From: an uncultured Calditrichaceae bacterium
Lineage (GTDB): Bacteria > Calditrichota > Calditrichia > RBG-13-44-9
Reading direction: 5' to 3'
Assembly (NCBI GenBank): GCA_964387645.1
Contig: CAYLYM010000006.1
Location: 355-64,354, forward strand
DNA: 64,000 nt
The notes beneath the pieces were generated by a model. The model saw only the letters and a list, made by a program, of their open reading frames with translations, searched no databases and had not been told where the DNA came from. Shown here piece after piece: positions 1-48,806 of the stretch; within the stretch, counting starts at the first letter, position 1, and each line of letters starts with the position of its first letter. Both the position numbers and the translations under genes were made by a program.

Positions 1-19
1 ACAGGCTTTATTTTTCGGC

Positions 20-862
20 ATGAAAAAATTTTTTCTCATCATCATTTTGACTTTATTCGTTTTTGAAAGTGCTCATACAAATGAAAGGTACTATTTTATT
101 CGATCTTCCACTTGCAACAACTTTTTTTCTAATTTCAAAAGCGATTTTCAACATTTTATTGGCATTGGTGTACAATTGTTCATTTCTCCCTCTCAATTCC
201 ATCAGGATGATTTGAAAAGAATTGGAATTATTGCTGGAAGTACTGCTTTATTGTTTTTAATAGATAAAGATATTCGAAATTTTGCACAATCTTATCAAAG
301 CAAAACAAACAACCGGGTTTTTCAATTAGATAATTATTATGGGAATAAATATACCTTTTACTTAACACTAAGCACCTATGTATTAGGTTATTTCTCAAGA
401 AAAGAGGCTGTTCGAGAAACAGGATTACTATCCATGGAAGCATTTTTGTATTCAGGATTCATTACGAACCTACTAAAAGTATTTATTGGCAGACGTAGAC
501 CCAATGGAGGTGAAAACCATCTCGTTTTTAAACCTTTCCAATTTAAAACGCATTACAAATCCCTTCCCAGTGGTCATTCGACAGTGAGTTTTGCGGTTTC
601 AACCATTATGGCAAAATCCTGGAATAATCTCTTTTGGAAAACATTTTGGTATGGTTCTGCGGCGATGGTGGCAGTATCACGGATTTACCATAATGCTCAC
701 TGGATTTCAGATATCTTTTCGGGAGGTATGATCGGTTACAGTATTGCTCATTTTATTAATAAGTATAACTGTGAAAGAGAAGACAATCTAAATATCCATT
801 CTTTTCAAAGCTTTCAAATTTATATCAATGGGAATAAGTTAGGTTTTATTCTTCAATTTTAA
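20..862 (+). CDS. PAP2-family phosphatase (membrane-associated acid phosphatase/phosphatidic acid phosphatase-like), N-terminal signal/TM segment
   Basis: PAP2 signature motifs are present in order: KVFIGRRRP, PSGHS, SRIYHNAHWISD. Hydrophobic N-terminus MKKFFLIIILTLFVF. Confidence 0.8.
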   Translation: MKKFFLIIILTLFVFESAHTNERYYFIRSSTCNNFFSNFKSDFQHFIGIGVQLFISPSQFHQDDLKRIGIIAGSTALLFLIDKDIRNFAQSYQSKTNNRVFQLDNYYGNKYTFYLTLSTYVLGYFSRKEAVRETGLLSMEAFLYSGFITNLLKVFIGRRRPNGGENHLVFKPFQFKTHYKSLPSGHSTVSFAVSTIMAKSWNNLFWKTFWYGSAAMVAVSRIYHNAHWISDIFSGGMIGYSIAHFINKYNCEREDNLNIHSFQSFQIYINGNKLGFILQF

Positions 863-1780
863 GGTAATTAGAACTTCATTAGACCTTCAGGGCTCTAAAT
901 TTAACTGATTATCTTGTCTTTAGTTAAATAATAAAAAATTTCGTGAGTACCATGACTTTCTTGCTCACCGTTCTACTAACCGCTAAGCTCTTATCTTAAA
1001 TTTGGACTGTTCATAATTGTCAAGAATGAAAAACAGAGAGATGTCATCCTGGGCATATTTGAGTGAATACCACCATTTTTCCTTAAAAAATTTATACACA
1101 AATAAATTTCTTTATCCATCAATTTTATATTTTGCCGTTAATTTTTTTTACATTTTACAATAAATTAATTTTAATTCTTTCTAAACCAGTTGATGTAGTT
1201 GATATGGAGAAAAAAATAAATTTGCTCAAATTGTTGCTCAAAGGGGAGATTTGCTATATGTATAATTTTCATAGAAAAATTGTTGTCGAATATGAAAAAA
1301 TATTTTATAAAAGTGAGAAAGATTTTCTGTTTAAATATTTAAAAAAATTAATAAAACAGAAACTTCCAAATTTCTATTGACAAAATAAATCATTTATTAT
1401 ATACTGTAATAATAGAATAATTATATTTTTGAAGAAGTTGGCGAAAATACAGGGAAATAGTTTTTTTGATCTTGCTTGTTTTAATTTAACATTATTTTTA
1501 AAAGATTGATCTATCAATAATTTTTCAAACCTTTAGCTTAAAAAATATCGAGCGAATATCTAAGAAAAAAATATAAGTTAAAAATATTTATCGAATAAGA
1601 TTTGTTAATGAAAAGAAATTTAGTTATGTATTTTTGAATATATATTGTATATTCAATTATATATTAAAAATATTATTAAATTCTGAAAAATATATCGTTT
1701 AAATTGATTATGGGATAAAGATTAGTTTTATTAATTTTTACTTGTTTTTAACAGGTTTATAAATAATACAGGAGGTATGA

Positions 1781-3457
1781 ATGCAAGGAATTGAAAAAAG
1801 CCCTACTGGAATTAAGGGATTCGATGAAATAACACTAGGAGGTTTACCTAAAGAGAGACCAACTTTAGTTTGTGGAAAAGCAGGTTGTGGAAAAACTTTA
1901 TTTGCTATGGAATTTATTTATAAAGGTGCAGTAGAATTTAGAGAACCTGGCGTATTTGTTGCATTTGAAGAGACTGAAGAAGAACTGAAAAAGAATGTTA
2001 CAGCACTGGGATGGAACCTGGATAAGCTGATTGGTGAGAAAAAATTGATTATTGAACATATTCGTATTAATCCTTCAGAAATTGTGGAGACGGGAGAATA
2101 TAGCCTGGATGGCCTTTTGCTTCGTTTGAAGGCTGCGATCGATGAGATTGGCGCAAAAAGATTGGCAATTGATACTATTGAAGTTTTATTTAGTAGTTAT
2201 TCCAACAGTTTTATACTTCGAGCCGAAATACAGCGGCTATTTCGTTTTCTTAAAGAAAATAAGGTTACAGCCGTTATCACGGGTGAAATGGGAGATGGTA
2301 GACTAACCCGACATGGACTGGAAGAATATGTTTCGGATTGTGTGGTTTCTTTAGATCATTCTGTTGCCAATGGAATTGCTACACGCAGGTTACGGGTGGT
2401 AAAGTATCGTGGCTCTCGCCACGGAACCAATGAATTTCCGTTTTTTATTGAAGAAAATGGATTTTCCTTAATGCCAGTTACTGATCTGGAGATGGATTAT
2501 GAGGTACCTCATGAGAAAATTTCCACAGGAATTCCCCGCTTAGATGCCATGTTTGGAGGTGAGGGCTGTTATCGGGGTAGCAGCATTCTTATTTCCGGTA
2601 CTGCCGGAACAGGAAAGAGTACTTTGGCAGTTACTTTTGCAGATGCCAGTTGTCGCCGCCAAGAACCCTGCCTCTATATTAGCTTCGAAGAATCAGCAGA
2701 TCAAATCATTAGAAACATGCGTTCGGTTGGATTTGATTTGAAAAAACATATAGATAATGGCTTATTGAAATTTTACTCAACACGTCCAACCTTGATGGGA
2801 TTGGAAGAACATCTTTTCATGATACAGTCACAGATAGATAAATTTAACCCCAAGATGGTAATTGTTGATCCTATTTCAAATTTAGTATCCATTTCATCTC
2901 AACTGGAAGTGAAATGGATGTTTACCCGCTTAATTGATTTTATTAAAAGGAAACAAATCACAACTATCATGACTGATTTAACGGAACAGGATAGTTATTT
3001 CCGGGAAAATTCAACTGTGGGTATCTCCTCTCTTATTGATACCTGGATTTTCCTCAGGGACATTGAATCGGGAGGAGAAAGAAATAGAGGGCTTTATATA
3101 CTAAAAGCCAGAGGATTGAATCACTCCAATCAGATTAGAGAATTTCATATTACTTCAAAAGGAATAAAGTTCCTGGATGTTTATACCGGACCTGGAGGAG
3201 TTTTAACAGGTTCGGCCCGATTGACTCAAATGGTAAATGATAAATTAGCAGAACTTAAACGAAAATATGAAGTAAAAAATAAACAATTACAGTTGGAATT
3301 AATGCGTAAACAGATGGAATCCAGGATAGCTGAAATCAGGGCTGAATATGAAGCAAAAGAAGCAGAACTTAAACGTTTAATTGAACAAGATGAATTAAAA
3401 CAAAAAATTTTGGAAGATGCCAGAAAAGAAATGGCGGAACTTCGTAGAGCGGATTAA
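1781..3457 (+). CDS. kaiC: Circadian-clock-type ATPase KaiC (duplicated RecA-like CI and CII domains) with ~70 aa C-terminal coiled-coil extension
   Basis: Two Walker A motifs (GKAGCGKT, GTAGTGKS). Paired catalytic glutamates FEETEE and FEES. SS pair aligning with the KaiC S431/T432 phosphosites (GISSLIDTWIFL). Lys/Glu/Arg-rich heptad tail (ELKRKYEVKNKQLQLELMRKQ...AELRRAD). AGGAGG RBS 6 nt upstream. Confidence 0.9.
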   Translation: MQGIEKSPTGIKGFDEITLGGLPKERPTLVCGKAGCGKTLFAMEFIYKGAVEFREPGVFVAFEETEEELKKNVTALGWNLDKLIGEKKLIIEHIRINPSEIVETGEYSLDGLLLRLKAAIDEIGAKRLAIDTIEVLFSSYSNSFILRAEIQRLFRFLKENKVTAVITGEMGDGRLTRHGLEEYVSDCVVSLDHSVANGIATRRLRVVKYRGSRHGTNEFPFFIEENGFSLMPVTDLEMDYEVPHEKISTGIPRLDAMFGGEGCYRGSSILISGTAGTGKSTLAVTFADASCRRQEPCLYISFEESADQIIRNMRSVGFDLKKHIDNGLLKFYSTRPTLMGLEEHLFMIQSQIDKFNPKMVIVDPISNLVSISSQLEVKWMFTRLIDFIKRKQITTIMTDLTEQDSYFRENSTVGISSLIDTWIFLRDIESGGERNRGLYILKARGLNHSNQIREFHITSKGIKFLDVYTGPGGVLTGSARLTQMVNDKLAELKRKYEVKNKQLQLELMRKQMESRIAEIRAEYEAKEAELKRLIEQDELKQKILEDARKEMAELRRAD

Positions 3458-3476
3458 AAATTTTTGAGGTGATAGA

Positions 3477-3815
3477 ATGGTCAAGACAAAATCAACTCAG
3501 GATCAAAAGTCGGATAAATCAGATGAGTTTTATGAGTTAAGACTTTATGTTGTAGGACAAAGTGAAAATTCTTTAAGAGCGTTTAAAAATTTGAAAAATA
3601 TTTGTGAAGAATACCTGAAGGGTAGGTATTCTATAGAAGTGATTGATTTGTTGGAAAATCCACAATTAGCTAAAGACCACCAGATATTGGCAGTTCCCAC
3701 CCTGGTTCGGAAATTGCCTGAACCAATGAAAAAAATAATCGGGAATCTTGCTAATAAAGAGAAAGTCCTTGTGGGACTGGATCTGAAACCGATGGAATTT
3801 AAGGATAAAGATTAA
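3477..3815 (+). CDS. kaiB: KaiB (thioredoxin-like fold), copy 1
   Basis: 112 aa. KaiB-like core [14 protein letters not shown]...[12 protein letters not shown]. Lies immediately downstream of kaiC with its own GAGGTG RBS. Confidence 0.85.
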
Positions 3816-3838
3816 TCTAAAGCAAGGAAGGATCATTA

Positions 3839-4177
3839 ATGAAAAATGGAGAAAAAGAAATTCAAAATGTAGCGGCTGAATTTGAAAAAGCTTTGCAAAA
3901 ACAGGGAAAGTTATTTTATCGACTCAAGCTTTTTATCTCTGCTAATTCGCCAAGATCGAACAAAGCGATCTTGAATTTAAAATATATCTGCCAGACTTAT
4001 CTTGATGAAAAATATGAATTAGAGGTAATTGATGTTTTAAAAGAAAGAAGTAGTTTAAAAACCTATCACATTATAGCTATTCCGACTTTAATTAAAGAGA
4101 CACCTCTTCCAAAACGAAAGCTGATTGGAGATTTATCCAATAAAGAAGAAGTTTTATATGGATTAGGCATCAAATGA
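3839..4177 (+). CDS. kaiB: KaiB paralog, copy 2
   Basis: 112 aa. LKLFISANSPRS...IIAIPTLIKETPLP matches the same KaiB architecture as copy 1 but is diverged from it. Tandem to copy 1 and co-oriented. Confidence 0.8.
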   Translation: MKNGEKEIQNVAAEFEKALQKQGKLFYRLKLFISANSPRSNKAILNLKYICQTYLDEKYELEVIDVLKERSSLKTYHIIAIPTLIKETPLPKRKLIGDLSNKEEVLYGLGIK

Positions 4178-4196
4178 GCGAGGAGGAATTCTTAAA

Positions 4197-7103
4197 GTGG
4201 GGAATGGAAAAAAAACTCAATCTCATCTTGAAAAGGAGATTCAACGTTTGCAGAAAGAGTTGGGAGAAGCCACTTCAACTTTAAACGCCATAAGAGCTGG
4301 CGAAGTGGATGCCATCGTGGTACATGGTGATAAACAGACCCATGTATATACACTTAAAAGAGCTGATCAATCGTTTCTAACTCTTGTTGAGGAAATGTTG
4401 GAAGGGGCTGTAATTTTTGCATTAGATGGCACGATAATATATTGTAATTCAAGCTTTGCTGAAATGGTCGGAATGCCGGTGAAAAAGGTTATCGGTTCAT
4501 CGTTTTATCAGTTTGTGCTCCCTTCGAGAAAAATTGATATAGAAAAAACTCTGAAAAAAATTGATAAGGATGGATTGCAATTTGAAATGGAATTGAAAAC
4601 TGCGTTGGATAAGAATATACCTGCACTTTTATCCATTAAAAAGACAACCATTGAAAAGGAAGAATTGTTCACCACAACAATTGTTGATTTAAGCGAACAA
4701 AAAAGAAATGAGGAGATTATTGCACGTGGAAGATTGATAGAATCAATGTTAAAACAATCGCAAGAAGCGATTTTGGTTTGTGATGTTGAAGGGCGAATTA
4801 TCATGAGTAGCGAGCCAGCCAGAGAAATGGCCGGTAAAACCAACCTGAATCAATATTTCAAGAATGTTTTCCCCAATATTGTTTTAATGTTAGACGATCC
4901 TTCAGGTTCAGAAACAATTAAACAAATTCCTTTCTCAATCGATGATATTTTGCAAGGCAAATTTTTTTACAATATCGAAGGTAAATTTCAGCGCGGAGAT
5001 GGCAAAATCTATAATATTTTACTGCGAGCTCAAAGTATAAGAGATGAGAAAGATAATATAATTGGTGCTGTTGTTGGGTTTTCGGATATCACTCGGATTA
5101 AGAAAACTGAAAGTAAACGTGTGGCGCTATTTCAGATATCACATGCAGCTTTTTCTGCAGGTAATTTGAAGGAATTCTATTCCAAAGTGCATCAGATTGT
5201 TGGCAAAGTTTGTTATGCTGAAAATTTTTATATTGCCTTGTATTATAGAAATAAAAAAAGATTTGAGTTTGTATATGTTGTGGATGAATATGAGAAATCA
5301 CGCTTACCCAGTGCTCTGGCAGAGATTCTTATAAATAAGGTCACCCAAAAAAAAGAACCTTTATTGGCTTCAAAATCCGAAATTAAAAATTGGGTTTTGG
5401 AAAAAGGAGAGAAGTTTGAAGGAAAAATACCGAATTATTTTTTAGGAGTGCCTTTAAAAGTAAAAGATCAGCCCATCGGCGTTTTGGCTCTTCAGACTTA
5501 TAGGAATTGTGTGTCTTTCGATGAGGAAGAGATGGATTTCTTGAGAGTTATATCTGAACAGGTGGCAATGGCTATAGAGCGTATTCGGATAAATGAAGAA
5601 AATAAATTTCACAATACTGTTTTAACGTGGGTGCCCTATGGAGTTTTAATATTAGATCATACAGGAAAATTGGTCTGGGCTAATTCCACCTTTTGTCAGA
5701 TGATAGATTATTCAATGAAGGAACTCCAGGATGAATTTCCACCAATATATAAAGATTCTGTAAATTTTGGGCAACTTTTCGTTGAGATAGTAAAGTCTCT
5801 CGAGGAAAGTCAATCGTGGCAGGGAGAACTTGTTGTTTTAAGAAAAGATGGGAGTAATTTTCCTGCAGAAGCAATTTTTTCTCCAATAGAAAGAAATGGG
5901 AGTTATTTAGCAAGATATGTTGCCATCATACAAGACGTTTCTGAGAAACGTGAATTGGAACAACAATTTTTCCAGGCTCAGAAAATGGAGGCCATTGGCA
6001 AACTTGCTGGTGGTGTGGCCCACGATTTTAATAATATTCTCACCATAATTAATGGTTATAGCGATTTATTGTTGGCCAGATTAGATACGGATCATCCTTT
6101 TTACAAAGAAATATCTATGATCCGAAAAGCTGGGGAGCGGGCAAGCGGGTTGACAAACCAGCTTTTAGCTTTCAGCAGAAAGCAAATGATACGCCCCAGA
6201 AATCTTAACCTGAATACAATAATAAAAGACACAGAAAAAATGTTGAAGCGTTTAATAGGCGAAGATATTGAGCTTGTAACTCATCTAGATCCCGATTTAA
6301 ATGAAATTCACGTTGATCCCACACAGATTGATCAAATCATTATGAATCTTGCTGTAAATGCCAGGGATGCCATGCCCAAAGGGGGCAAACTAACTATTGA
6401 AACAAAAAATGTCGAATTAGACCAGAGTTATATCCAGAAACATGGAGAAGTTAAAGCAGGTTCTTATGTGATGCTTTCTATAAGTGATACAGGAATCGGG
6501 ATAGATAAGGAAACGATGCAACATATTTTTGAGCCTTTTTTTACAACTAAAGGTAAGGGAGAAGGAACCGGGCTTGGTTTATCTACTGTATACGGAATTG
6601 TAAAGCAAAATAATGGATATATTTGGGTTTACAGCGAGCCCGGCGAAGGTGCAGTTTTTAAAATCTATTTCCCAATAACTTCTAAAAAAGCTGGAGATGT
6701 CGAAGTCGAGAAAATTTCATCAGAAGAGTTAATTGGTAATGAAACAATTCTCCTAGCAGAAGATGATCATTGGGTAAGAGAATTAACAAAGTCCACTCTG
6801 GAAGCTTATGGTTACAAAGTATTGGAAGTAGAACGCGGTGATGAAGCGCTTAAAATTTGCAAAGAATTTAAGAATCCCATACATTTGCTGTTAACTGATG
6901 TAGTTATGCCTGGAATGAGTGGTAGCGAACTAGCTAAAAAAATATTAGAATATCATAAGGATATCAAAATTTTATATATGTCGGGTTATACCGATGACGC
7001 CATGATAAGATATGGGATTCGTGATAAAGAAGTAGAGTTTCTTCAAAAGCCTTTTTCTTCAAAAGTTCTTCTTGAAAAAGTAAGAAAGATATTGAATAAA
7101 TAG
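4197..7103 (+). CDS. Hybrid sensor histidine kinase: PAS-PAS-GAF-PAS sensor region, HisKA (H-box VAHDFNNILTII), HATPase_c (N-box NLAVNARDAM, G-box GTGLGLSTVYGIV), C-terminal receiver domain
   Basis: 968 aa ORF with a GTG start 10 nt after AGGAGG. Conserved H, N, G1 and G2 boxes. C-terminal REC with DD...D...K pattern (ILLAEDDHW...LLLTDVVMPGMSG). Co-oriented directly after kaiB2 with a 19 nt gap. Confidence 0.85.
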   Translation: MGNGKKTQSHLEKEIQRLQKELGEATSTLNAIRAGEVDAIVVHGDKQTHVYTLKRADQSFLTLVEEMLEGAVIFALDGTIIYCNSSFAEMVGMPVKKVIGSSFYQFVLPSRKIDIEKTLKKIDKDGLQFEMELKTALDKNIPALLSIKKTTIEKEELFTTTIVDLSEQKRNEEIIARGRLIESMLKQSQEAILVCDVEGRIIMSSEPAREMAGKTNLNQYFKNVFPNIVLMLDDPSGSETIKQIPFSIDDILQGKFFYNIEGKFQRGDGKIYNILLRAQSIRDEKDNIIGAVVGFSDITRIKKTESKRVALFQISHAAFSAGNLKEFYSKVHQIVGKVCYAENFYIALYYRNKKRFEFVYVVDEYEKSRLPSALAEILINKVTQKKEPLLASKSEIKNWVLEKGEKFEGKIPNYFLGVPLKVKDQPIGVLALQTYRNCVSFDEEEMDFLRVISEQVAMAIERIRINEENKFHNTVLTWVPYGVLILDHTGKLVWANSTFCQMIDYSMKELQDEFPPIYKDSVNFGQLFVEIVKSLEESQSWQGELVVLRKDGSNFPAEAIFSPIERNGSYLARYVAIIQDVSEKRELEQQFFQAQKMEAIGKLAGGVAHDFNNILTIINGYSDLLLARLDTDHPFYKEISMIRKAGERASGLTNQLLAFSRKQMIRPRNLNLNTIIKDTEKMLKRLIGEDIELVTHLDPDLNEIHVDPTQIDQIIMNLAVNARDAMPKGGKLTIETKNVELDQSYIQKHGEVKAGSYVMLSISDTGIGIDKETMQHIFEPFFTTKGKGEGTGLGLSTVYGIVKQNNGYIWVYSEPGEGAVFKIYFPITSKKAGDVEVEKISSEELIGNETILLAEDDHWVRELTKSTLEAYGYKVLEVERGDEALKICKEFKNPIHLLLTDVVMPGMSGSELAKKILEYHKDIKILYMSGYTDDAMIRYGIRDKEVEFLQKPFSSKVLLEKVRKILNK

Positions 7104-7271: not shown

Positions 7272-7623
7272 AGAAGACTCATCCAATTATAAATTTTAGA
7301 AAACTTAAATTTTGTTTTAAGTTTATTATTTTATTCGTCTTAGATAAATGCACTTAAGTTATTTTGATATTTTTTTGATAAAAATCAGCAGAAAGAGAGA
7401 AAGAATACCAATATTGAAGTAAAGCGGAAGTTTTTTGAAAGTGGATATGCTTTTGATTAGCAATATTTACAAATCAAAAGTTTCTGTTTTTAATAGACTC
7501 TTGAAAGTATAAATAAACCGCTTTTTTAAAATATAGCATTGCTAACAAGGTAAATCTGCTTTATTTTCGATCACATTTTATTGCGAATTACTTTGAGGAT
7601 GGAAAAAATTAGCAAGGTAATTT

Positions 7624-8217
7624 ATGTTAAAGATAGTTGTTGCTACTGGTAATGAAGACAAGTTTAGAGAAATTCTGGATATTTTAAAAGAAGTGCCGGC
7701 AGAGTTTTTCTCATTAAAAGATTTTCCTGATATACCTGAGATCGAGGAAACCGGTATAAGTTTTACCGAGAATGCGTTGTTAAAGGCAAGAACGGTACAC
7801 AAAGCTACTGGTCTTTTTACCCTTGCCGATGATTCAGGTCTTGAAGTAGACGCATTGAATGGAGCACCTGGAATTTATTCTGCACGTTATGCTGGGCAAG
7901 AAAAAGATTATACGGCAAATAATGAAAAGCTATTGAGAGAAATGGAGCAACTTCCTCCAAAAATGCGAGGTGCCCAATTTCGATGTGTGGTGGCTTTAGT
8001 TGGGCAGAATTTTGAGCAAATCGTGGAAGGTGTGATTCGAGGCCGAATTATTGATGAATTGCGCGGGAGTGCCGGATTTGGCTATGATCCCCTGTTCGTC
8101 CCCGAAGGTTACAACAAAACTTTTGCTGAGTTGGGTGAGGAGATCAAAAATAGGATCAGCCACCGTGCCAGAGCGTTTCATAAAGCGAAAGAAATTCTTC
8201 TGAACTTATGGGAATAA
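7624..8217 (+). CDS. rdgB: Non-canonical purine NTP pyrophosphatase (dITP/XTP pyrophosphatase, RdgB/Ham1 family)
   Basis: KIVVATGNEDKFREI N-terminus, FGYDPLF motif, about 197 aa. Confidence 0.85.
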   Translation: MLKIVVATGNEDKFREILDILKEVPAEFFSLKDFPDIPEIEETGISFTENALLKARTVHKATGLFTLADDSGLEVDALNGAPGIYSARYAGQEKDYTANNEKLLREMEQLPPKMRGAQFRCVVALVGQNFEQIVEGVIRGRIIDELRGSAGFGYDPLFVPEGYNKTFAELGEEIKNRISHRARAFHKAKEILLNLWE

Positions 8218-14807: not shown

Positions 14808-15123
14808 AGGCAATGCGGTCGGCGATGAGATTATTTATATTCTTTTGATTATTTTTTTATTTGGAAAGTATAAATGATAAAATATCCAGATTTTTCTGAT
14901 AGGGTGTCTTAGATTGTTTTTTTTAGATATCGAAAGATTAAATAGAGTGCTGACAGGTTGATTTTTATTTATTATTAAAAAACTTTAGTGTAGGACAACT
15001 ACAGACTCTTCACGGATCTGGTATCTGATTTCCATTGTTTTGTAGAACTGAATAATACAAATTAGATTAATAATTGTTGAATTGAACGTTATTCAATAAA
15101 TAGAGAAATAATTAGGAGTGTTT

Positions 15124-15924
15124 ATGTTGCGGATTGGTTATTATCAGTTCCGACCTTTGTTTGGGAAGGTGGAAAAAAACCGCGAGAAAATTTTTGCGAA
15201 ATTGAGATCAGTAAGAGCAGATCTTTTAGTATTACCGGAACTTCCTTTTACTGGTTATCATTTTGCTGATAAAGAGGAATTATTGCAGATGGCAGAAGAT
15301 CCTGAAGATAGCTCTACGCTCAGGGAATTGGTTGAAATCTGCGCAGAAAAAGATATGTTTATCGTAACAGGTTTTGCGGAAAAGCATGGAGATCGGGTTT
15401 ACAATTCCGCCTTTCTCGTTGGTCCGCAGGGTTTGCTTCATATTTACCGAAAGATTCACCTGTTTTTCCGGGAAAAAGAACTTTTCGTTCCTGGAGATAC
15501 GCCGTTGCGGGTGCAGGAGGTTAAGGGGGTGAAGATAGGAGTGATGATTTGCTTCGATTGGATATTCCCGGAAGTTACACGAAGTTTGGCGTTGCAAGGT
15601 GCACAGATCATCTGTCATCCAGCGAACCTTGTTTTAAGTTATTGCCAGCAGGCCATGCTAACCCGTTGTTTAGAAAACAATGTTTTTGCTATTACTGCTA
15701 ATCGCTTTGGCGCTGATAAAAGGCCTCATGGAACATTACGATTCACCGGAAAAAGCCAGATTGTAGCGCCAAAAGGTGAACTTCTGCATCGGTCAGTTTC
15801 GCAGAAAGAAGAACTGTTTGTGACTGAAATTGATCCCGGGGTTGCACTGGATAAAAAAATTACTCCAATGAACGATCTATTTACTGATCGTCGGGTGGAA
15901 TTTTATCAGAGTCTCTGCTCTTAG
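15124..15924 (+). CDS. Carbon-nitrogen hydrolase (nitrilase superfamily amidohydrolase)
   Basis: Glu-Lys-Cys triad context: LLVLPELPFTGYHF, RKIHLF, catalytic Cys in MICFDWIFPE. AGGAG RBS 5 nt before the ATG. Confidence 0.8.
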   Translation: MLRIGYYQFRPLFGKVEKNREKIFAKLRSVRADLLVLPELPFTGYHFADKEELLQMAEDPEDSSTLRELVEICAEKDMFIVTGFAEKHGDRVYNSAFLVGPQGLLHIYRKIHLFFREKELFVPGDTPLRVQEVKGVKIGVMICFDWIFPEVTRSLALQGAQIICHPANLVLSYCQQAMLTRCLENNVFAITANRFGADKRPHGTLRFTGKSQIVAPKGELLHRSVSQKEELFVTEIDPGVALDKKITPMNDLFTDRRVEFYQSLCS

Positions 15925-16032
15925 TGGGGTATTTTAAATTTTCGATTGTGTTTATCTCAAATGATGTGGAACCAGCTTTCTATAAAGATATTAAAAGCTT
16001 TGTAGCATAGTTTTAAAACAAGGAAAAATGAG

Positions 16033-17589
16033 ATGGCAAAAAATACTATCCTCTGGGTAGATGATGAGATAGAATTTTTACAACCACATATATTGTTTTT
16101 GAAAGAAAAGGGTTACGAGGTTATTACCACTACTAACGCCGATGATGCTATTGAAATGATTCGAAATGGTGTTTTTGACCTGGTTTTACTGGACGAAATG
16201 ATGCCTGGTAAAGATGGTTTAACTGCACTGGGTGAGATTAAGGAGCTGAATCCGGCCCTTCCGGTAATTATGATTACCAAAAATGAAGAAGAGACTCTGA
16301 TGGAAGATGCCATCGGTGCAAAAATAGATGATTATTTAACCAAGCCGGTGAATCCCAGTCAGATATTGATGGTATGTAAAAAGCATTTGGAATTTCACGA
16401 TATTTCACAGAAACGCTTGACGGAGGCTTCTTCACAAAAGATTCGGGAAATTGCTTTAAAATTGATGGAACCGCTAAATTTTAACGATTGGATTGACATT
16501 TACAGAAAATTGGTTGAATGGGACCTGGAGTTAGACCGGGTGAGCGATCAACAGATGCGCCAGGTTATTTACGATCAGCGTCGGGAATGTAATGTGGAAT
16601 TTGGAAAATTTATTGAAAGAAACTATATCGATTGGCTCCATCAAAAAGAAAATCGGCCAGAGTTGTCGATCGATATTGTGAAGAATTACGTTCTACCTGA
16701 AATGCAGGCGGGGAAAAAGGTAGTATTTGTCGTGATCGATTGTTTGCGTCTGGATCAATGGTTGACTTTAGAACCTTTCTTTTATCCATTCTTTAATATT
16801 TCAAAAACTTTTTATTACTCTATACTTCCCACGGCAACGCCTTTTTCACGTAATGCCATTTTTAGCGGGTTATTTCCATTGGAAATCGAGCGCCGTTATC
16901 CCGATATCTGGGCTCAGGGAGAAGATGATGATTACAGCCGCAACCGCTACGAGGACAAATTGCTTTACGATCAGTTACGTATTCTTGGTCTGAAACTTCA
17001 GTCATCTCCCGGATATATTAAAATTTTAAATTCGGAAGACGCCAAAAGTCTGGAAAAGAATTTGCCAGGTTATCTGGATTCATCATTATTGAGTATTGTA
17101 GTAAATTTTGTGGACATTTTGGCGCACAGCCGTTCGGATGTGCCTATTTTAAAAGAAATTGCTCCTGATGAATCTTCTTACCGCTCGCTGACTCGATCGT
17201 GGTTTGAACATTCTGCAATTTATAATGTCTTTAAGATTTTAGCCGATCAGAATGTGACTATTATTCTGACCAGCGATCATGGCAGTATTCGAAGTTTGAG
17301 GGGAACAAAAGTTATCGGTGATCGCGAAACCAGCACCAATTTGCGCTATAAATACGGGCGAAATTTGAAAGTAAATCCAAAACATGCCTTGTATATCAAG
17401 AACCCGAAAGATTTTAAATTACCTCAATCCAATTTCAATGTTAATTATATCATCGCTAAAGAAGATTACTATTTTGTTTATCCGACCAATTATCATAAAT
17501 ATCTGGCCTATTACCGCGATAGTTTTCAACATGGCGGGGTTTCGATGGAGGAAATGATTCTACCACTGGTGAAGTTGCAGCCTAAATAG
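16033..17589 (+). CDS. PorX-like response regulator: N-terminal CheY-like receiver fused to a PglZ (alkaline-phosphatase superfamily) effector domain
   Basis: REC motifs ILWVDDE...LVLLDEMMPGKDG...K. C-terminal PglZ-type metal-ligand motifs VFVVIDCLRLDQW and TSDHGS. Confidence 0.8.
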   Translation: MAKNTILWVDDEIEFLQPHILFLKEKGYEVITTTNADDAIEMIRNGVFDLVLLDEMMPGKDGLTALGEIKELNPALPVIMITKNEEETLMEDAIGAKIDDYLTKPVNPSQILMVCKKHLEFHDISQKRLTEASSQKIREIALKLMEPLNFNDWIDIYRKLVEWDLELDRVSDQQMRQVIYDQRRECNVEFGKFIERNYIDWLHQKENRPELSIDIVKNYVLPEMQAGKKVVFVVIDCLRLDQWLTLEPFFYPFFNISKTFYYSILPTATPFSRNAIFSGLFPLEIERRYPDIWAQGEDDDYSRNRYEDKLLYDQLRILGLKLQSSPGYIKILNSEDAKSLEKNLPGYLDSSLLSIVVNFVDILAHSRSDVPILKEIAPDESSYRSLTRSWFEHSAIYNVFKILADQNVTIILTSDHGSIRSLRGTKVIGDRETSTNLRYKYGRNLKVNPKHALYIKNPKDFKLPQSNFNVNYIIAKEDYYFVYPTNYHKYLAYYRDSFQHGGVSMEEMILPLVKLQPK

Positions 17590-17644: not shown

Positions 17645-17680
17645 AATAAAAAATAAAAAATAAAAAATAAAAAATAAGAA
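17645..17680. repeat. Tandem heptamer repeat (ATAAAAA) x5 upstream of tsaE
   Basis: Sequence aataaaaaataaaaaataaaaaataaaaaataagaa read directly. Confidence 0.7.
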
Positions 17681-17693
17681 TGATTATTAGGGG

Positions 17694-18191
17694 ATGGCGT
17701 CAATTAGCGAAGAAAGATATTTAGAAAAAGAAGTATTAAATCCGGAAAAAACCCAAAAGATAGCCGAGCAGTTTGCCAGAGAACTCCATCCCGGCGATGT
17801 GGTGGCCTTTTATGGGGATTTGGGCACCGGGAAAACCTTCTTCATCAAAGCTCTTTGCCGGGCATTAGGGGTGGAACAGGAAGCCACTAGTCCTTCGTTT
17901 ACCATTATTAATGAATATCACACAAAAGAAGGTTTGTATATTTACCACTTTGATTTTTACCGAATCGAAAACGAGGCAGAATTAGTGAATCTTGGATTGG
18001 ATGAATTTTTTTATAATGATTATTTATGTTTTATTGAGTGGGCAGACAGGATAGAAAAAGAACTCCCTGAAAATTGCTGGAATGTTCATTTGGAATTCCT
18101 TAAAAATAAGCCTGAAGGGCGGAAAATTGTGATTAAAAAAAGGTATCATGATGAAAAAAGAAACAGTTTCTATTCTCGGTATCGAAAGTAG
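17694..18191 (+). CDS. tsaE: tRNA threonylcarbamoyladenosine biosynthesis ATPase TsaE (YjeE)
   Basis: P-loop GDLGTGKTFFIKALCRALG typical of TsaE. Size about 165 aa. Confidence 0.85.
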   Translation: MASISEERYLEKEVLNPEKTQKIAEQFARELHPGDVVAFYGDLGTGKTFFIKALCRALGVEQEATSPSFTIINEYHTKEGLYIYHFDFYRIENEAELVNLGLDEFFYNDYLCFIEWADRIEKELPENCWNVHLEFLKNKPEGRKIVIKKRYHDEKRNSFYSRYRK

Positions 18192-18837
18192 TGGCGCGAC
18201 ATCAAGTATTTCACTTTCCAGAGATGGAGAGTTGATCGGGGAATTTTCTCTGGTAATAAAGAATATTCATTCCCGACTTTTGTCTGTAATAATTCAACAG
18301 ATAATAGAATTAACCAGCATTCAATATCGTGATCTTTCGGCAATTGCCTTGTCCGCCGGGCCTGGATCTTTTACAGGCTTACGCATAGGCTACAGTCTGG
18401 CAAAAGGTCTGGCTCATGCCCTGAACTTACCTGTTGTTGAAGTGCCAACCTTGGATATCTTTGCTTATCAACAGGGTCAAACAGATTATCCAGTAGTGTC
18501 CCTCATTGATGCCCATCGAGGTGAAGTGTTTTTGTCTACTTATTGTTGGGAAAATAATCAGCTAAATCAGAAAACAGATAGTCAAATTCTTCCACTTGAA
18601 AAGATTTCCAATTTAGTAAAAGAATCTGCATTATTTGTTGGACCTGATGTTTTGAAATTTAAAAAGATTATTGAAGAATGTTGTGGCACCCGGGCTATTT
18701 TCCCCTTCCCTTTTAATTCCAGACCAGAAGCCAGAGCATTACAGGAATTGGCCTACCGAAAATATTTGTCTGGTGAAACAGTTTCTGCCCGTGATTGTGA
18801 ACCTAAGTATATGCGTCCTTTTAAAGGGATCATGTGA
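18148..18837 (+). CDS. tsaB: tRNA threonylcarbamoyladenosine biosynthesis protein TsaB (YeaZ)
   Basis: ILGIESSGATSSISL N-terminus and ASKH-fold glycine motifs. 44 nt overlap with tsaE. Confidence 0.85.
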   Translation: MMKKETVSILGIESSGATSSISLSRDGELIGEFSLVIKNIHSRLLSVIIQQIIELTSIQYRDLSAIALSAGPGSFTGLRIGYSLAKGLAHALNLPVVEVPTLDIFAYQQGQTDYPVVSLIDAHRGEVFLSTYCWENNQLNQKTDSQILPLEKISNLVKESALFVGPDVLKFKKIIEECCGTRAIFPFPFNSRPEARALQELAYRKYLSGETVSARDCEPKYMRPFKGIM

Positions 18838-19289
18838 TGAAAATTCGAAGAATGACTGAAAAAGACCTTGATGTTGTTACTAAATTAGAACGACGATTAT
18901 TTCCCGATCCCTGGTCTCGTAGCAGTTTCGAATTCGAAATTCATCAGAATATATATTCTTTTCCCATGGTTCTGGAGCAGAAAGGTCAAATTATAGGATA
19001 TGCTATCATCTGGAAAATCTACGAGGAATTCCATATTGCTAATCTGGCTATTCATCCAGATTTTCAGGGAAGAAAATTAGGCAGTTATTTTTTAGATCAA
19101 ATTCTTAAAATGAAAGGCGATTGCCGCTATGCTCTTTTGGAGGTTCGGGAGAGTAATAAACGGGCCATTCATTTATATGAGAAATTCGGATTTAAGACAA
19201 TTATGAAACGTCCAAAATATTATCGGAATGGTGAAACGGCACTGGTTATGCAGAAATTATTCTTAGATGAAAATAACGGGACAAAGTAA
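18834..19289 (+). CDS. rimI: Ribosomal-protein-alanine N-acetyltransferase RimI (GNAT)
   Basis: GNAT motif A QGRKLGSYFL. ATGA start/stop overlap with tsaB. Forms the conserved tsaE-tsaB-rimI cluster. Confidence 0.8.
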   Translation: MMKIRRMTEKDLDVVTKLERRLFPDPWSRSSFEFEIHQNIYSFPMVLEQKGQIIGYAIIWKIYEEFHIANLAIHPDFQGRKLGSYFLDQILKMKGDCRYALLEVRESNKRAIHLYEKFGFKTIMKRPKYYRNGETALVMQKLFLDENNGTK

Positions 19290-26708: not shown

Positions 26709-27026
26709 TTAGTCAAAATCTTTAAGTTGACTTGTATACATTTCAATTTCTTCGACATGTGCGTAATCCTTAAGCAGGCTGCGAACCACTCCGAGGAGAA
26801 TGAATCCTGATACAGATGGAGTAAATATTTTATTCTGTTTCACACCAAAGATGTTCGCCGTAGCTGTTTCTAAAAGGTTCTGTTTCGGGTTGATGAATAA
26901 AACTTCATCATATCCTTTTCTCCGGGCTATGCTCTGACGATATAAGTAATCTCCGTAATTAATGGCTTTGTGGGAGTCAAGTGCTGACGAAGGGGAGTGA
27001 GGGATCTCAAGCATTATAAAAAACAT
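26709..27026 (-). pseudogene. C-terminal remnant (about last 100 aa) of a class-IV aminotransferase (PabC/IlvE/D-amino-acid aminotransferase family)
   Basis: LDSHKAINYGDYLYRQSIARRKGYDEVLFINPKQNLLETATANIF...TPSVSGFILLGVVRS matches the C-terminal half of fold-type IV enzymes. The N-terminal ~170 aa is absent, with an in-frame TAA two codons upstream of the first Met. Confidence 0.55.
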
Positions 27027-27112: not shown

Positions 27113-27550
27113 CTATAGAAAATTTTGTATAGTTTCTAAAAGATGGATAAAAAAATTTGACCGTTGAAATAACTGTTTTATTCCACAAACCTCTGCGAAG
27201 ATTTTTTTCTTTATCTGAACATGTTGGTAATAACCAATCAATTTTTTTGATATCTCCGGATTTTGTGTGCAAAATTCTTTTAAAAAGTTAAAATCAAAAT
27301 TTTGACTATCAATGTCAATGATGATATACCGACTGGTATCTTTTTTCCAGAAATCGAAGATTGCTTTCAGACCTCCGAGAATCTCAATCCGGTATTTTTT
27401 CCCCAATGTTTCTGTGAGACGAATTTGATCCAACATATTTTCGGTGTAAATGCCGATTGACTTTTTAGGTGAAGTCATCATTTGCCTCATCTCATTTTGA
27501 GTTCTTAATGATAATAATTCAATAACAAGATTTCCAGTTGAAAAAAACAA
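27113..27550 (-). CDS. Hypothetical protein with degenerate receiver-like (REC-like) fold
   Basis: YIIIDIDSQNF resembles the receiver phospho-acceptor region, but the acidic pair at the N-terminus is replaced (TEN). Confidence 0.35.
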   Translation of the reverse strand: MFFSTGNLVIELLSLRTQNEMRQMMTSPKKSIGIYTENMLDQIRLTETLGKKYRIEILGGLKAIFDFWKKDTSRYIIIDIDSQNFDFNFLKEFCTQNPEISKKLIGYYQHVQIKKKIFAEVCGIKQLFQRSNFFIHLLETIQNFL

Positions 27551-31718: not shown

Positions 31719-32747
31719 ATGGTTCGCCAGTTGAACTGTAATGAATTGAAATTCGCTTTATATCCTCATGCTCATGAAATGGAGATGTACGAAAGTTATT
31801 ACCGCAATGGTCAGTGGGATGAAGGTACTATAGTTAATTACCATGATATTACTTTATCGCCAGCAGCCAATATTTTAAATTACGATCAGGGTATTTTTGA
31901 GGGATTGAAAGCTTTTTACAGCCAGAAGGGAAATATTATTTTGTTTCGTACCGAAGAAAATGCTAAAAGATTTGAGCGTATTGCCCGAAAATTAACCATT
32001 CCCGATTTTCCTGTAGAAAAGTTTTTGAAAGTGGTGGGAGAAGTAGTTCTAGCAAATAAAGATTTTATACCACATAGCCATGATGGACATTGCAGTTTAT
32101 ATATATGCCCGGTATGTATTGGAATTGAACCATTACTGGGTGTACGTGCTTCCACTGAGTATCTCTTCTATATTTTTGCCAGTCTAGTTGGACCCTATTT
32201 TGATATAGTCGGCATTATTCGGCTGGTTGCTAAAGAAGTTGATCTAGCCAGTCCACATGGAACTGGCGACGCCAAAGCAGTGTGTAATTACCCGGTGACC
32301 ATGCGTCCTAAGAAAGAAGTATTAGCTGAAGGATTTAATTATGTTATATACTTAGACCCATTTGAAAGTAAATATATCGAAGAGGCTGGAGCTGCAAATT
32401 TTTTCGCTTTAATTGAAGGCGAAATCCTGGTAATCCCACCTTTAGGATCAATTCTTCCTGGTATAATCAGAGATTCGGTTATTAGTTTAGCGCGGGATTT
32501 TTACGGAATGAAAGTAGAGAAGAGAAATTTAAGTATGGAGGGAACGGTAAAACGAGCTAAAGAATGTTTCGTCACCAGAACAGCGGCCATTATCACATCA
32601 GTAAGCCACATTGGGTGGAAAGGCCAGGTGTACGATGTAAACAGAAACGATTATAGATTAGCACATAAACTTTATAACAAACTTATCAATATTCAACTCC
32701 AAGAGGAAGAATATCCCTTCGGGTGGGTAACTATTTTAGAATCATAA
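31719..32747 (+). CDS. Class-IV (fold-type IV) aminotransferase, long divergent BCAT-like paralog
   Basis: GIFEGLKAFY...LFRTEENAKRFERIARKL and C-terminal PGIIRDSVISLAR motifs. 342 aa. Confidence 0.7.
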   Translation: MVRQLNCNELKFALYPHAHEMEMYESYYRNGQWDEGTIVNYHDITLSPAANILNYDQGIFEGLKAFYSQKGNIILFRTEENAKRFERIARKLTIPDFPVEKFLKVVGEVVLANKDFIPHSHDGHCSLYICPVCIGIEPLLGVRASTEYLFYIFASLVGPYFDIVGIIRLVAKEVDLASPHGTGDAKAVCNYPVTMRPKKEVLAEGFNYVIYLDPFESKYIEEAGAANFFALIEGEILVIPPLGSILPGIIRDSVISLARDFYGMKVEKRNLSMEGTVKRAKECFVTRTAAIITSVSHIGWKGQVYDVNRNDYRLAHKLYNKLINIQLQEEEYPFGWVTILES

Positions 32748-32811
32748 TGGTCCTATTGTTTTAGCAAAGAAAAGAGATAAGTATTCATTATATTAAATTT
32801 TGGAGGATTTT

Positions 32812-33741
32812 ATGGAAGTTAATAAAGGATTGGCTGAAAAGATATGGCATAATGGAAAATTCATTAATTGGGATGATGCAAAAATACATGTGATGTCGCA
32901 TGTAGTTCATTATGGTACAGCAGTTTTTGAAGGGATTCGTTGCTATAAAAATAAAAACGGAAGTGCCATCTTCCGGCTTCAAGAACATATAAAAAGGTTG
33001 TTGAATTCGGCTAAAATATATCGGATGGTCCCGGAAGAATTTTCTGAAGAAGACCTTATTCAGGCCTGTATGGAGGCGGTAAAAATAAATCGGTTTGAAG
33101 AATGCTATATTCGTCCAGTCATTTTTCGCGGTTTGGGTGAATTTGGTGTGAATCCTTTGAATTCTCCCATCGAGACATTTATCGTTACCTGGTATTGGGG
33201 AAAATATTTGGGACCTGAAGCCCTAGAACGTGGAGTAGAAGTGATGGTTTCCTCCTGGAATCGTATGGCACCAAATACTCTTCCGACTCTGGCAAAAGCT
33301 GGTGCTAATTATATGAACTCACAGTTAATTAAAATGGAAGCTATAGTTAATGGTTATGTAGAGGGGATAGCTCTGGATTCTTCTGGATACGTATCCGAGG
33401 GAAGTGGAGAAAATATTTTTGTGGTAAAAGATAATAAAATTTATACACCGCCTTTGTCAGCTTCTGTTTTACCAGGTATTACACGCGATAGTATAATGAA
33501 GCTTTGTCATGATCTGGGTATTGAAGTTACAGAAATGATGATTCCTCGAGAAATGCTTTATATTTCGGATGAAGTTTTTTTTACCGGGACTGCTGCAGAA
33601 ATTACGCCGATTAGTTCCATTGATAAAATTCCCATTGGTGAAGCCAGGCGAGGTCCCATTACCAAGAAGTTACAAGATGAATTTTTTAGTATCATTAATG
33701 GAGAAAAAGAGGACCGTTACGGCTGGCTACAATATATTTGA
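32812..33741 (+). CDS. ilvE: Branched-chain amino acid aminotransferase
   Basis: [14 protein letters not shown]...[10 protein letters not shown]...[26 protein letters not shown] at 32812 preferred over the upstream TTG. Confidence 0.85.
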
Positions 33742-41732: not shown

Positions 41733-42467
41733 CAGAAAAAAAGAGATATCCTTTTCTTAATCATTAACAGGCCAGGAAAACGCTATGTCTTAAGTCAGGC
41801 TTTAATAAAAAAATTTCATAAACAATTGGACTTCATACAAGACAATAAAGAAATACATGTTATAACTCTCGCTGATAAAGAATCAACCTTTTGCACCGGT
41901 GCGGATTTGGCTTACTTAAAGTAGCTAAGCCAGTATACCGATCAGGAAAATTTAAAAGATTCCCGACGCCTGGCAAACCTGTTTCAGAAGATTTACCGAT
42001 TACCCAAACTAACTGTGGCGATGATCAATGGTCCAGCTTTGGCTGGAGGATGCGGTCTGGCACTTTGCTGCGATATTTTGATCGCTGATCAGGAATAGGT
42101 CTGCCTGGGATTTACTGAGCCAAGAATTGGCTTTGTCCCTGCCATCGTTATGAACTTTCTTATTCGGAAAGTGCCATTGCACGTGGCACATTGGTTGGCT
42201 TTAAGTGCTGAAATTATCTCTGCCGAACAAGCACGTCAGATGGGACTTGTTCATAAAGTTTTTACTTCGACTCAATTGGAACACAAAACGGTTGAATTGA
42301 TAGAATCGTTGCTTATCCGGAATAGCTTCCAGGCCATGATGCAAACTAAGCAACTTTTTCAGGAATTATTGGACTTGCCACTTTCCCGGGGTCTGGATTT
42401 GGCATGTGAGGTCAATGCACGTAATCGTAAAACAGTTGATTACCAATGCGATTGGCTGCTTTTTTGA
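41733..42467 (+). pseudogene. Enoyl-CoA hydratase/isomerase (crotonase) pseudogene: no start codon and two in-frame TAG codons
   Basis: A single frame encodes a crotonase-like sequence (LIINRPGK, TGADLAYLK*LS, MINGPALAGGCGLALCCDILIADQE*VCLGFTEPRIGF, ISAEQARQMGLVHKVF). In-frame TAGs at 41922-41924 and 42096-42098. The N-terminal ~10 aa including the start codon are missing: an in-frame TAA lies at 41730-41732 and the first ATG is at 42008. Confidence 0.65.
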
Positions 42468-46195: not shown

Positions 46196-47017
46196 TTAGA
46201 TTTGTTTTTTGTTTTTTGTTCTTTGTTCTTTTTTTTCTTTAAACCTTGTCTTTTTTATGCTTTTCTGCAAGCTTAATGGTAGTTCCAAATCATTTTTTTC
46301 CAGAAGTTTTTGATCCCTGAGAATAATTTCTGTCGGACCATCCGCAATGATTTTTCCCTGATTCAGAATAATGACCCTGTGGCAGGTTTCCAGGGCCATA
46401 TCCAGATCGTGGGTAGTAAGAATGATGGTTTCAAGGCTTTTTTGAATCCAGCGAATAATTTTCCGCCGATGTGACAAATCCAGATTGCTTGTTGGTTCAT
46501 CCATTGCGATTAATTTGGGTTGCATGGCCAGAACTGTTGCCAAACTGGCAATTTTTCTTTCACCGAAACTCAAATGAAAGGATGAACGGTTTTCGTACCC
46601 TGTTAATCCCAAGTTTTCCAGTGCCTCGTCCACGCGGTGTTTCACTTCATCTGGTGAAAGTCCCATATTAAGCGGCCCGAAGGCTACATCTTCGAAAATA
46701 GTTGGACAGAATAATTGATCATCCGGATTCTGGAAAACTATTCCAACCAACTTCTTGATCGATATGGCATTTTTTTTATTCACTGGATAACCGAATATTT
46801 TCAATTCACCTTCTCCCCGACGAATTCCAGTGAGTAAAGTAAGCAATGTTGATTTTCCGGAACCGTTAGGACCAATGACAGCTACCTTCTCACCTTCCTG
46901 GATTTCGAAACTTATGCCTCGTAATGCATTTGTGCCATCCGGGTACCGGTATGAAAGCTCCCTTGCCCAAATAACTAATTTGTCTTGATTTCGTTCGGAA
47001 AATTTTTTCATATCCAA
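46196..47017 (-). CDS. cbiO: ECF-type ABC ATPase component (CbiO/NikO), with Lys-rich C-terminal tail
   Basis: Walker A GPNGSGKST, signature LSFGERK, Walker B LIAMDEPTSNLD. Tail KKTRFKEKKEQRTKNKKQI. Confidence 0.85.
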   Translation of the reverse strand: MDMKKFSERNQDKLVIWARELSYRYPDGTNALRGISFEIQEGEKVAVIGPNGSGKSTLLTLLTGIRRGEGELKIFGYPVNKKNAISIKKLVGIVFQNPDDQLFCPTIFEDVAFGPLNMGLSPDEVKHRVDEALENLGLTGYENRSSFHLSFGERKIASLATVLAMQPKLIAMDEPTSNLDLSHRRKIIRWIQKSLETIILTTHDLDMALETCHRVIILNQGKIIADGPTEIILRDQKLLEKNDLELPLSLQKSIKKTRFKEKKEQRTKNKKQI

Positions 47018-47075
47018 TTTTATTTCAGATAATCGATGTTTTCTTAAATATTCTGATTCAAAGAGCCATAAAATT

Positions 47076-47834
47076 TCACAAAATTAAAAAAGGTAAAATA
47101 AGAATAATTATAAAGAGCACCAACAATAACGAATCCCGCTGCTTCCAATTCAAATCACTTATGGTGTAAATTTTTCCGGAGAAACCTCTGGCGTCCATGG
47201 CCTGATAAACTCTCTCGCTGCGTTCATAGGTTCGAATGAACAGAACACCTATTTGCTGAGCAAAAACCTTAAGTCGGGTAAAAAATGGTAAATGAATGTA
47301 TCTTGCATTATATGCCATGAGCATTCGTTCAACTTCATCAATCAATAGAAAAATAAACCGATACATGAAGGACAAAATTAGAATGATGATACGAGGTATA
47401 TGAAATTTTTCCATTCCTTTCAAAAGCCGGTTAAATTCGGTAGTTGTGGTGAGAATAATGGACATGAACACTGCCAGAACCGATTTTACATTGATCAGAA
47501 GAAATTTATCTAATCCGCTCCGGTAAAATTTAAATATTCCAAGTTTAAAACCTGCTTCATGATCAGAAGGAAAAAACGGTAACAAAAAAGTGATAAAAAA
47601 AATCATGGGATAAATTTTAGCCAGTTTAGAAAGAAAATGCAAAAATGAAATCCCGCTGGTTAAAGCCAGAATGACCGGAACAAATGACAGTGGGATGAAA
47701 TAACGTTTAGCATCCTGAGGAATAACTACAAGCACCAGAATGTAAGAGACCATCATAAAAAATTTTAACCGGGGATCGGCTAAATGAACCAAACTATTTC
47801 CCGATCGATGGTGATCGAAAAAATCATGTCGCAT
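47076..47834 (-). CDS. cbiQ: ECF transporter transmembrane T component CbiQ/NikQ
   Basis: Polytopic membrane protein with the CbiQ-like DPRLK N-terminal motif. Sits between CbiO and the PDGLE/CbiM genes. Confidence 0.8.
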   Translation of the reverse strand: MRHDFFDHHRSGNSLVHLADPRLKFFMMVSYILVLVVIPQDAKRYFIPLSFVPVILALTSGISFLHFLSKLAKIYPMIFFITFLLPFFPSDHEAGFKLGIFKFYRSGLDKFLLINVKSVLAVFMSIILTTTTEFNRLLKGMEKFHIPRIIILILSFMYRFIFLLIDEVERMLMAYNARYIHLPFFTRLKVFAQQIGVLFIRTYERSERVYQAMDARGFSGKIYTISDLNWKQRDSLLLVLFIIILILPFLIL

Positions 47835-48138: not shown

Positions 48139-48152
48139 GATTTTATTTATTC

Positions 48153-48803: not shown

Positions 48804-48806
48804 ATA

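Follow-up and report, generated by a model that had tools for sequence, protein, structure and literature searches.

PorX is a response regulator that has been described as confined to the FCB (Fibrobacteres-Chlorobi-Bacteroidetes) group and as always found together with the T9SS (type IX secretion system) (PMC9757075). PorX is a known family: it is curated, its members have been crystallised from two species, Porphyromonas gingivalis (PGN_1019; structures 7PV7, 7PVA and 7PVK) and Flavobacterium johnsoniae (Fjoh_2906; structures 8TED and 8P6F), and its enzymology has been published. The proteins measure 500-530 aa, compared with at least 600 aa for the PglZ proteins of bacteriophage exclusion (BREX) systems (PMC9757075), and a three-helix bundle has been described in them (PMC10951265). 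For F. johnsoniae PorX, phosphodiesterase activity has been described, as has binding to GldL, which depends on the phosphorylatable aspartate D54 (PMC10951265). Here we describe a gene of a 64-kb stretch of Calditrichota DNA (contig CAYLYM010000006.1; by "the window" we mean this whole stretch), located at positions 16033-17589 and very probably encoding a PorX orthologue with conserved biochemistry.

The features of the gene and of its product are as follows:

16020-16024, plus strand: Shine-Dalgarno-like AAGGA, 8 nt 5′ of the porX ATG (direct reading of the sequence)
16033-17589, plus strand: porX coding sequence, a single uninterrupted open reading frame (ORF) with an ATG start, 518 aa plus stop and no internal stops
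16048-16368, plus strand: receiver (CheY-like) domain, residues 6-112 (Pfam PF00072, Response_reg)
16390-16647, plus strand: putative central helical-bundle linker, approximately residues 120-205, its boundaries placed by collinearity with the solved structures
16648-17586, plus strand: PglZ/alkaline-phosphatase-superfamily phosphodiesterase domain, approximately residues 206-518 (Pfam PF08665 at residues 228-419)

Both Pfam domains were recognized with scores far beyond chance. The Response_reg match scored 88 bits (cutoff 30.2; E 5.9e-25) and the PglZ match at residues 228-419 scored 62 bits (cutoff 25; E 9.2e-17). Over nearly its entire length (residues 5-518 on positions 2-513 of the 513 of the model), the protein also matched NCBIfam NF052313, T9SS_RR_PorX, with 727.2 bits against a cutoff of 300. 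NF052313 is a curated equivalog model with the name 'T9SS response regulator signal transducer PorX', and standard pipelines would give the gene this same name. Matches in the PDB comprised the three P. gingivalis PorX structures, with E values of about 1e-150 (2.8e-150 for 7pv7), and the two F. johnsoniae structures, with E values of about 1e-145 (7.6e-145 for 8ted, residues 3-518). The alignment with 7pv7 consisted of a single block that joined window residues 4-518 to residues 13-523 with three short gaps, and the linker stretch within it aligned nearly gap-free, with one deletion of a single residue. Identity to P. gingivalis PorX was 44%, and the 518 aa of the window protein fall inside the PorX length range. 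The P. gingivalis protein has the same three-part architecture and a nearly equal length, and the F. johnsoniae protein is matched over the full length as well.

Functional residues were taken from the P. gingivalis structure paper (PMC9757075) and mapped onto the window protein. Results showed that the receiver retains the phospho-acceptor D54 (D58 in P. gingivalis; D54, the identical number, in F. johnsoniae) and the acidic pocket D10/D11 (D14/D15 in P. gingivalis), together with T82 and K104. In the PglZ domain, the metal ligands D236 (D239 in P. gingivalis), D361, H365, D415, H416 and H500 (same numbers in both proteins), the nucleophile T269 (T272) and the phosphate contacts R273 (R276) and N358 (N358) were all present; phospho-acceptor, zinc ligands and threonine nucleophile are therefore identical in the two proteins. 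The dimer-interface residues M90 and D100 of the receiver (M94 and D104 in P. gingivalis) and S385 and S389 of the PglZ domain were also kept, whereas the third receiver-interface residue, I129 in P. gingivalis, is S125 in the window. When the window protein was aligned by MAFFT with P. gingivalis PorX and 80 relatives (n = 82), the 14 checked receiver and PglZ positions were invariant in 82 of 82 sequences. An earlier note on this DNA, written from the sequence alone, had proposed a receiver fused to a PglZ domain at 16033-17589, had called the protein PorX-like and had made this call depend on the PglZ metal-binding residues. In agreement with it, the ORF is intact over these coordinates, both domains score above their cutoffs, and the metal-binding residues are all there and invariant in the alignment; the PorX call itself is right by more than architecture, with an equivalog score more than twice the cutoff, collinearity with the structures from both species and conservation of the catalytic residues.

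By analogy with the proteins of P. gingivalis and F. johnsoniae, Asp54 would receive its phosphoryl group from acetyl phosphate or from a PorY-type histidine kinase encoded at another locus, and phosphorylation would lead to dimerisation through the receiver and PglZ interfaces. As a dimer, the protein would become active as a two-zinc phosphodiesterase; Thr269 would be its nucleophile, and pGpG and oligoadenylates, linear or cyclic, may be broken down to mononucleotides. Once phosphorylated, the receiver may also bind the PorL/GldL motor protein at its cytoplasmic tail and in this way tune type IX secretion. Finally, the product of the adjoining gene, a TsaE/UbK-family protein, may supply a second, non-canonical phosphorylation input, as has been reported for P. 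gingivalis.

To collect relatives, we searched GTDB species, each represented by one genome, and obtained at least 598 confirmed PorX relatives. Among the matches listed, the closest, with 69-79% PorX identity, came from metagenome-assembled genomes (MAGs) labelled Calditrichota, Calditrichia or Caldithrix; next among them, at 56-62%, were those with the labels KSB1, Bacteroidota, Ignavibacteriota and Chlorobiaceae. The two Calditrichota loci that matched best (L002 and L005) shared with the window the whole string of a carbon-nitrogen (CN) hydrolase gene, porX, tsaE, tsaB, rimI, accD, surE and guaA, collinear over ∼10 kb, with identities to the window of 63-80% in five genes, 60-61% in tsaE and 45-46% in tsaB. 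Proteins identical to those of the window were present on short contigs from several JGI and ENA metagenomes; the organism is represented in JGI metagenomes 3300033141, 3300033149, 3300033150 and 3300033156 and in ENA ERZ27248458. The genome paper of Caldithrix abyssi places Calditrichaeota in the FCB superphylum and notes the T9SS cargo C-terminal domain TIGR04183 in this phylum (PMC5317091); NCBI taxonomy lists Calditrichota directly under Pseudomonadati. Nearest relatives, synteny and the published placement of the phylum (PMC5317091) thus agree on an FCB-group host, as expected for a PorX. The earlier note had left the choice between a T9SS-bearing FCB organism and a novel use of the PglZ output. 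The first option is favoured by the Calditrichota relatives, the FCB phylum and the reported TIGR04183 domain, and nothing was found in support of the second. What is new is the host phylum for PorX, Calditrichota as compared with the Bacteroidota of P. gingivalis, and not a new kind of system.

We consider it fairly likely that the window PorX controls a T9SS in its own organism, and we stop at this strength because the genome data span only the 64-kb window. Several observations weigh against such a role. We scanned 63 of the 65 window ORFs of at least 100 aa with NCBIfam and rescanned those with no hit with Pfam, skipping two nested opposite-strand ORFs. In these 63 ORFs, no sprA, porK-N, porV, porT or TIGR04183 cargo domain was detected, and neither was a PorY-like kinase or a SigP-like sigma factor. 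None of the partners of the P. gingivalis protein, PorY, SigP, PorL and the T9SS, was accordingly seen in the available window sequence. The window ends could be extended by ∼2-4 kb on each side through identical proteins on metagenome contigs, and no T9SS structural gene, cargo domain, PorY-like kinase or SigP-like factor appeared in these extensions, whose genes encode NUDIX, PAP2, HAD and CDP-alcohol phosphatidyltransferase proteins. Likewise, sprA was found in none of the Calditrichota or KSB1 locus flanks examined, nor next to the window porX. The T9SS of F. johnsoniae also powers gliding, whereas C. abyssi, a cultured member of Calditrichota, has flagellar genes and is reported to lack the Bacteroidetes-type gliding machinery (PMC5317091). 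In the literature searched, no paper joined Calditrichota, Calditrichaeota or Caldithrix with T9SS. In addition, the biochemical steps outlined above are all carried over from orthologues that are only 44% identical, and the link between enzyme activity and secretion is unsettled even in P. gingivalis (PMC10951265, PMC9757075).

We compared the genes upstream of porX in the related loci. In 35 of 80 loci, the immediate upstream neighbour of porX was the T9SS translocon gene sprA/sov, in the same orientation; the three longest of its ORFs that were tested scored 859-891 bits with TIGR04189. The gene ended 50-400 bp before the porX start in nearly every case, with L058, where a smaller ORF intervenes, as the sole exception. 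All of these loci belong to MAGs labelled Ignavibacteriota, Bacteroidota or Chlorobiaceae and include L014, L016-L018, L022, L024, L026, L027, L030 and L033, in which sprA occupies approximately positions 1-5950 upstream of porX. In loci of the type sprA-porX-tsaE-tsaB-accD (Ignavibacteriota- or Bacteroidota-labelled MAGs, for instance L026 and L033), PorX is 56-62% identical to the window protein and the downstream genes tsaE, tsaB and accD are shared, whereas the window has the CN-hydrolase gene and a glycoside hydrolase family 2 (GH2) glycosidase gene in the place of sprA/sov. This cross-phylum arrangement is a useful side observation, not a new system. The remaining upstream neighbours were a CN-hydrolase gene in 5 (by Pfam) or 6 (by tblastn) loci, an SNF2-type helicase gene in 3 and assorted single cases. 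In the three loci of the helicase type (L015 3908-5914, L021 3912-5921 and one more), an SNF2/DrmD-like helicase gene stands directly upstream of a PorX-like gene and no tsaE follows downstream; their PorX-like proteins are full length and 59-60% identical to that of the window.

Around porX, the window carries the following features:

From 12075, plus strand: iron superoxide dismutase (Fe-SOD) gene (NCBIfam/Pfam scan)
From 12882, plus strand: GH2 glycosidase gene (NCBIfam/Pfam scan)
15118-15924, plus strand: CN-hydrolase/nitrilase-like gene, the upstream flank of porX
15913-15929, plus strand: terminator-like hairpin at the end of the CN-hydrolase gene (consensus scan)
17645-17677, strand not assigned: perfect (AATAAAA) tandem repeat of 4.7 copies in the porX-tsaE spacer
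17694-18191, plus strand: tsaE (yjeE), encoding a UbK-family ATPase/kinase, directly downstream of porX (TIGR00150, 115.7 bits against a cutoff of 60.1)
18148-18837, plus strand: tsaB (TIGR03725, above cutoff)
18834-19289, plus strand: rimI (TIGR01575, above cutoff)
From 19441, plus strand: accD
From 20413, plus strand: surE
From 21186, plus strand: guaA
From 22711, plus strand: glmS

The neighbours of porX are thus housekeeping genes, all on the plus strand, in which tsaB and rimI continue the conserved string porX-tsaE-tsaB-rimI-accD-surE-guaA, and the G+C content is even across the region. The consensus scan that placed a hairpin at the end of the CN-hydrolase gene predicted no terminator-like site in the 104-bp spacer between porX and tsaE. 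The region suggests that porX starts its own transcript, which runs on into tsaE; this evidence is weak, because promoter and terminator consensus sites are no commoner here than in shuffled sequence.

No histidine kinase gene flanks the window porX, which lies between the CN-hydrolase-like gene and tsaE. The sole histidine kinase in the scanned window ORFs is a PAS/GAF hybrid of 968 aa at 4197-7103, 9 kb from porX, and it belongs to a KaiC-KaiB-KaiB cluster and not to porX. Similarly, no histidine-kinase family was found among the 37 non-sprA upstream neighbours of the related loci (25 families listed, including every family with at least two members). For loci that lack tsaE, we also examined nine downstream genes, and in addition the upstream neighbour of L009. 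These were unrelated housekeeping genes, bar one lone receiver protein: the check covered trigger factor, NamZ, a molybdopterin oxidoreductase, PurL, a GAF-SpoIIE phosphatase, a member of the polyphenol-oxidoreductase (Cu-oxidase_4) family, an Omp85/PD40 protein, the lone receiver and one protein without a Pfam match, and no kinase was present among the nine downstream genes tested. The lone receiver is a stand-alone protein of 129 aa, encoded at 7618-8004 of the Caldithrix-labelled locus L038 directly after porX, in the place of tsaE. In P. gingivalis, porX also has no adjoining histidine kinase gene; porX and porY lie at separate loci and both have been termed orphans (PMC10951265, PMC9757075). 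Because the two genes are unlinked there, the missing kinase next to the window gene is a family trait rather than an anomaly. The description of the regulator as an orphan with no kinase adjacent is therefore correct with regard to histidine kinases; as a peculiarity of this gene it does not stand, and a tsaE gene of the UbK family does adjoin it.

The TsaE/YjeE/YdiB family has been presented as UbK-type protein kinases (2026 J Biol Chem, PMC13241743). The window TsaE contains all four UbK motifs, namely Walker A (GDLGTGKT, residues 41-48), SPS (66-68), HFDFYR (85-90) and EW (115-116), and matches 5NP9 (Bacillus subtilis YdiB, E 1e-28) and 9ZW5 (a TsaE of 141 aa, E 1e-27) in the PDB. In P. 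gingivalis, tsaE/ubK1 likewise lies directly downstream of porX, in 81 strains of the species (PMC13241743). To describe this pairing more widely, we considered as informative the 79 related loci with at least 500 bp of downstream sequence and measured gaps to the longest ORF start. In 69 of them, across several FCB lineages, the next gene after porX in the same orientation was tsaE, at a median gap of ∼9 nt, and the window porX shares this usual position of the family; tsaB followed tsaE in 51 of 58 related loci, and accD was present in 54. UbK1 phosphorylates P. gingivalis PorX in vitro on the receiver-domain residue Tyr79, which is not broadly conserved, and a Y79A substitution leaves gingipain secretion unchanged (PMC13241743). 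As for the window protein, the equivalent residue is Ala75, and among the 82 aligned sequences a tyrosine occurs at this position solely in P. gingivalis. The receiver of the window protein contains just two tyrosines, Y28 and Y101. By sequence comparison, the porX-tsaE neighbourhood is conserved far beyond P. gingivalis, whereas the mapped phosphosite is not. We advance only tentatively, as a rather doubtful proposal, that porX-tsaE(ubK) is an ancient functional module which selection has maintained across Calditrichota, KSB1, Ignavibacteriota and Bacteroidota and which sprA joins in many lineages.

An alternative reading would have PorX work mainly with TsaE/UbK, in translation, tRNA N6-threonylcarbamoyladenosine (t6A) modification or oligonucleotide signalling, with the link to T9SS secondary or absent in Calditrichota. 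The adjacency of porX and tsaE is about as constant as that of tsaE and tsaB, whose products form a known complex, the gene upstream of porX varies from locus to locus, and no T9SS gene was seen among the scanned window ORFs; moreover, UbK1 phosphorylates P. gingivalis PorX, and the authors of that work argue for PorX roles beyond T9SS (PMC13241743). However, the residue targeted by UbK1 is the one replaced by alanine in the window, and in P. gingivalis itself Y79A has no secretion phenotype, nor has any other phenotype been established (PMC13241743). The genes tsaE, tsaB and rimI form a housekeeping unit, so that the adjacency may merely reflect an ancient co-transcribed gene order, and the sampled porX-tsaE loci are phylogenetically related and not independent observations. 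The sprA genes adjoining porX in 35 loci, in turn, argue for a T9SS link in the PorX family. All in all, we regard this alternative as quite improbable.

PglZ is also a hallmark of BREX, and the protein could be imagined as an anti-phage component, of BREX or of another type, with an incidental receiver domain. BREX PglZ proteins have the PglZ fold and its metal-binding residues in common with the window PorX (PMC9757075), there was a secondary match to BREX_PglZ_3 (NF033449; E 6.7e-32, residues 125-515), and the SNF2/DrmD-like helicase stands upstream of porX in three related loci. Nevertheless, this match is weak, 110.6 bits against a cutoff of 250 and against 727 for the PorX model, and the window protein is shorter, at 518 aa, than the BREX proteins (PMC9757075). 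Unlike the window protein, BREX PglZ proteins lack a receiver domain, and their genes sit in defence islands alongside pglX and brxC; no pglX, brxC/pglY, brxL or other defence gene was present in the 63 scanned ORFs by NCBIfam and/or Pfam, and the neighbours, from the superoxide dismutase, GH2 and CN-hydrolase genes to tsaE, tsaB, rimI, accD, surE, guaA and glmS, are not defence genes. A mobile defence island does not fit the flat G+C content and the gene order kept in relatives. On the basis of model score, protein size and neighbours, we rejected this reading, which we hold to be extremely improbable. Just as improbable is that the gene is a degenerate PorX remnant, or one without catalytic function, kept only through its place in the tsaE operon; the invariant residues and the uninterrupted ORF led us to reject this reading. 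T9SS genes are missing nearby and Calditrichota are not known gliders (PMC5317091), but the ORF is full length without frameshift, the 14 functional residues are all intact and family-invariant, the identical protein occurs in an independent metagenome assembly, and the 69-79% identity among Calditrichota relatives points to purifying selection.

Elsewhere in the window, a tight cluster on the plus strand (1781-7103) encodes KaiC (558 aa; 702 bits on PRK09302 against a cutoff of 408), two KaiB proteins and the PAS/GAF hybrid histidine kinase mentioned above, which has its own receiver. The cluster amounts to a KaiBC module resembling a clock, together with its output kinase, in a genome that is Calditrichota-like and not cyanobacterial. 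The identical cluster was present on contigs from four metagenomes, with the kinase split into two ORFs in L083. On the minus strand, an ORF of 105 aa (26709-27026) matched class-IV (branched-chain/PabC) aminotransferases in their C-terminal part only and, together with an ORF of 145 aa without family match (27113-27550, minus strand), looks like a gene that has decayed or undergone a frameshift; the nearby interval 31719-33741 holds two intact ilvE paralogues. Another ORF of 105 aa (42150-42467, plus strand) matched only the C-terminal third of enoyl-CoA hydratases and is probably a gene fragment. At 46196-49220 (minus strand), genes for the NikR repressor, CbiM, a 154-aa ORF without family match, CbiQ and CbiO make up a nickel/cobalt uptake operon of the energy-coupling factor (ECF) type, in which the CbiM ORF and the next one overlap by ∼135 nt as called, so that one start codon is probably miscalled. 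Finally, recJ is a single ORF of 572 aa in the window (54888-56606) and is split into 406 and 122 aa at L086 3676-5294, on another metagenome's contig, which has the gene order of the window and an ExbB-like protein identical to the one there; the split reflects strain-level variation or an assembly error.

The gene at 16033-17589 documents an intact PorX in Calditrichota, a phylum without discussion of T9SS in the literature searched. Our comparison of related loci also extends a gene-neighbourhood argument that had been made for P. gingivalis strains only (PMC13241743). If porX and tsaE did form a maintained module, PorX would tie TsaE/UbK, with its part in protein phosphorylation or in the t6A modification of tRNA, to secretion and the hydrolysis of oligonucleotides across the superphylum, and the contact between PorX and TsaE, or the phosphosite, would have to differ from the non-conserved Tyr79. 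A functional pairing of the two genes would thereby offer a handle on the still unclear inputs of PorX.

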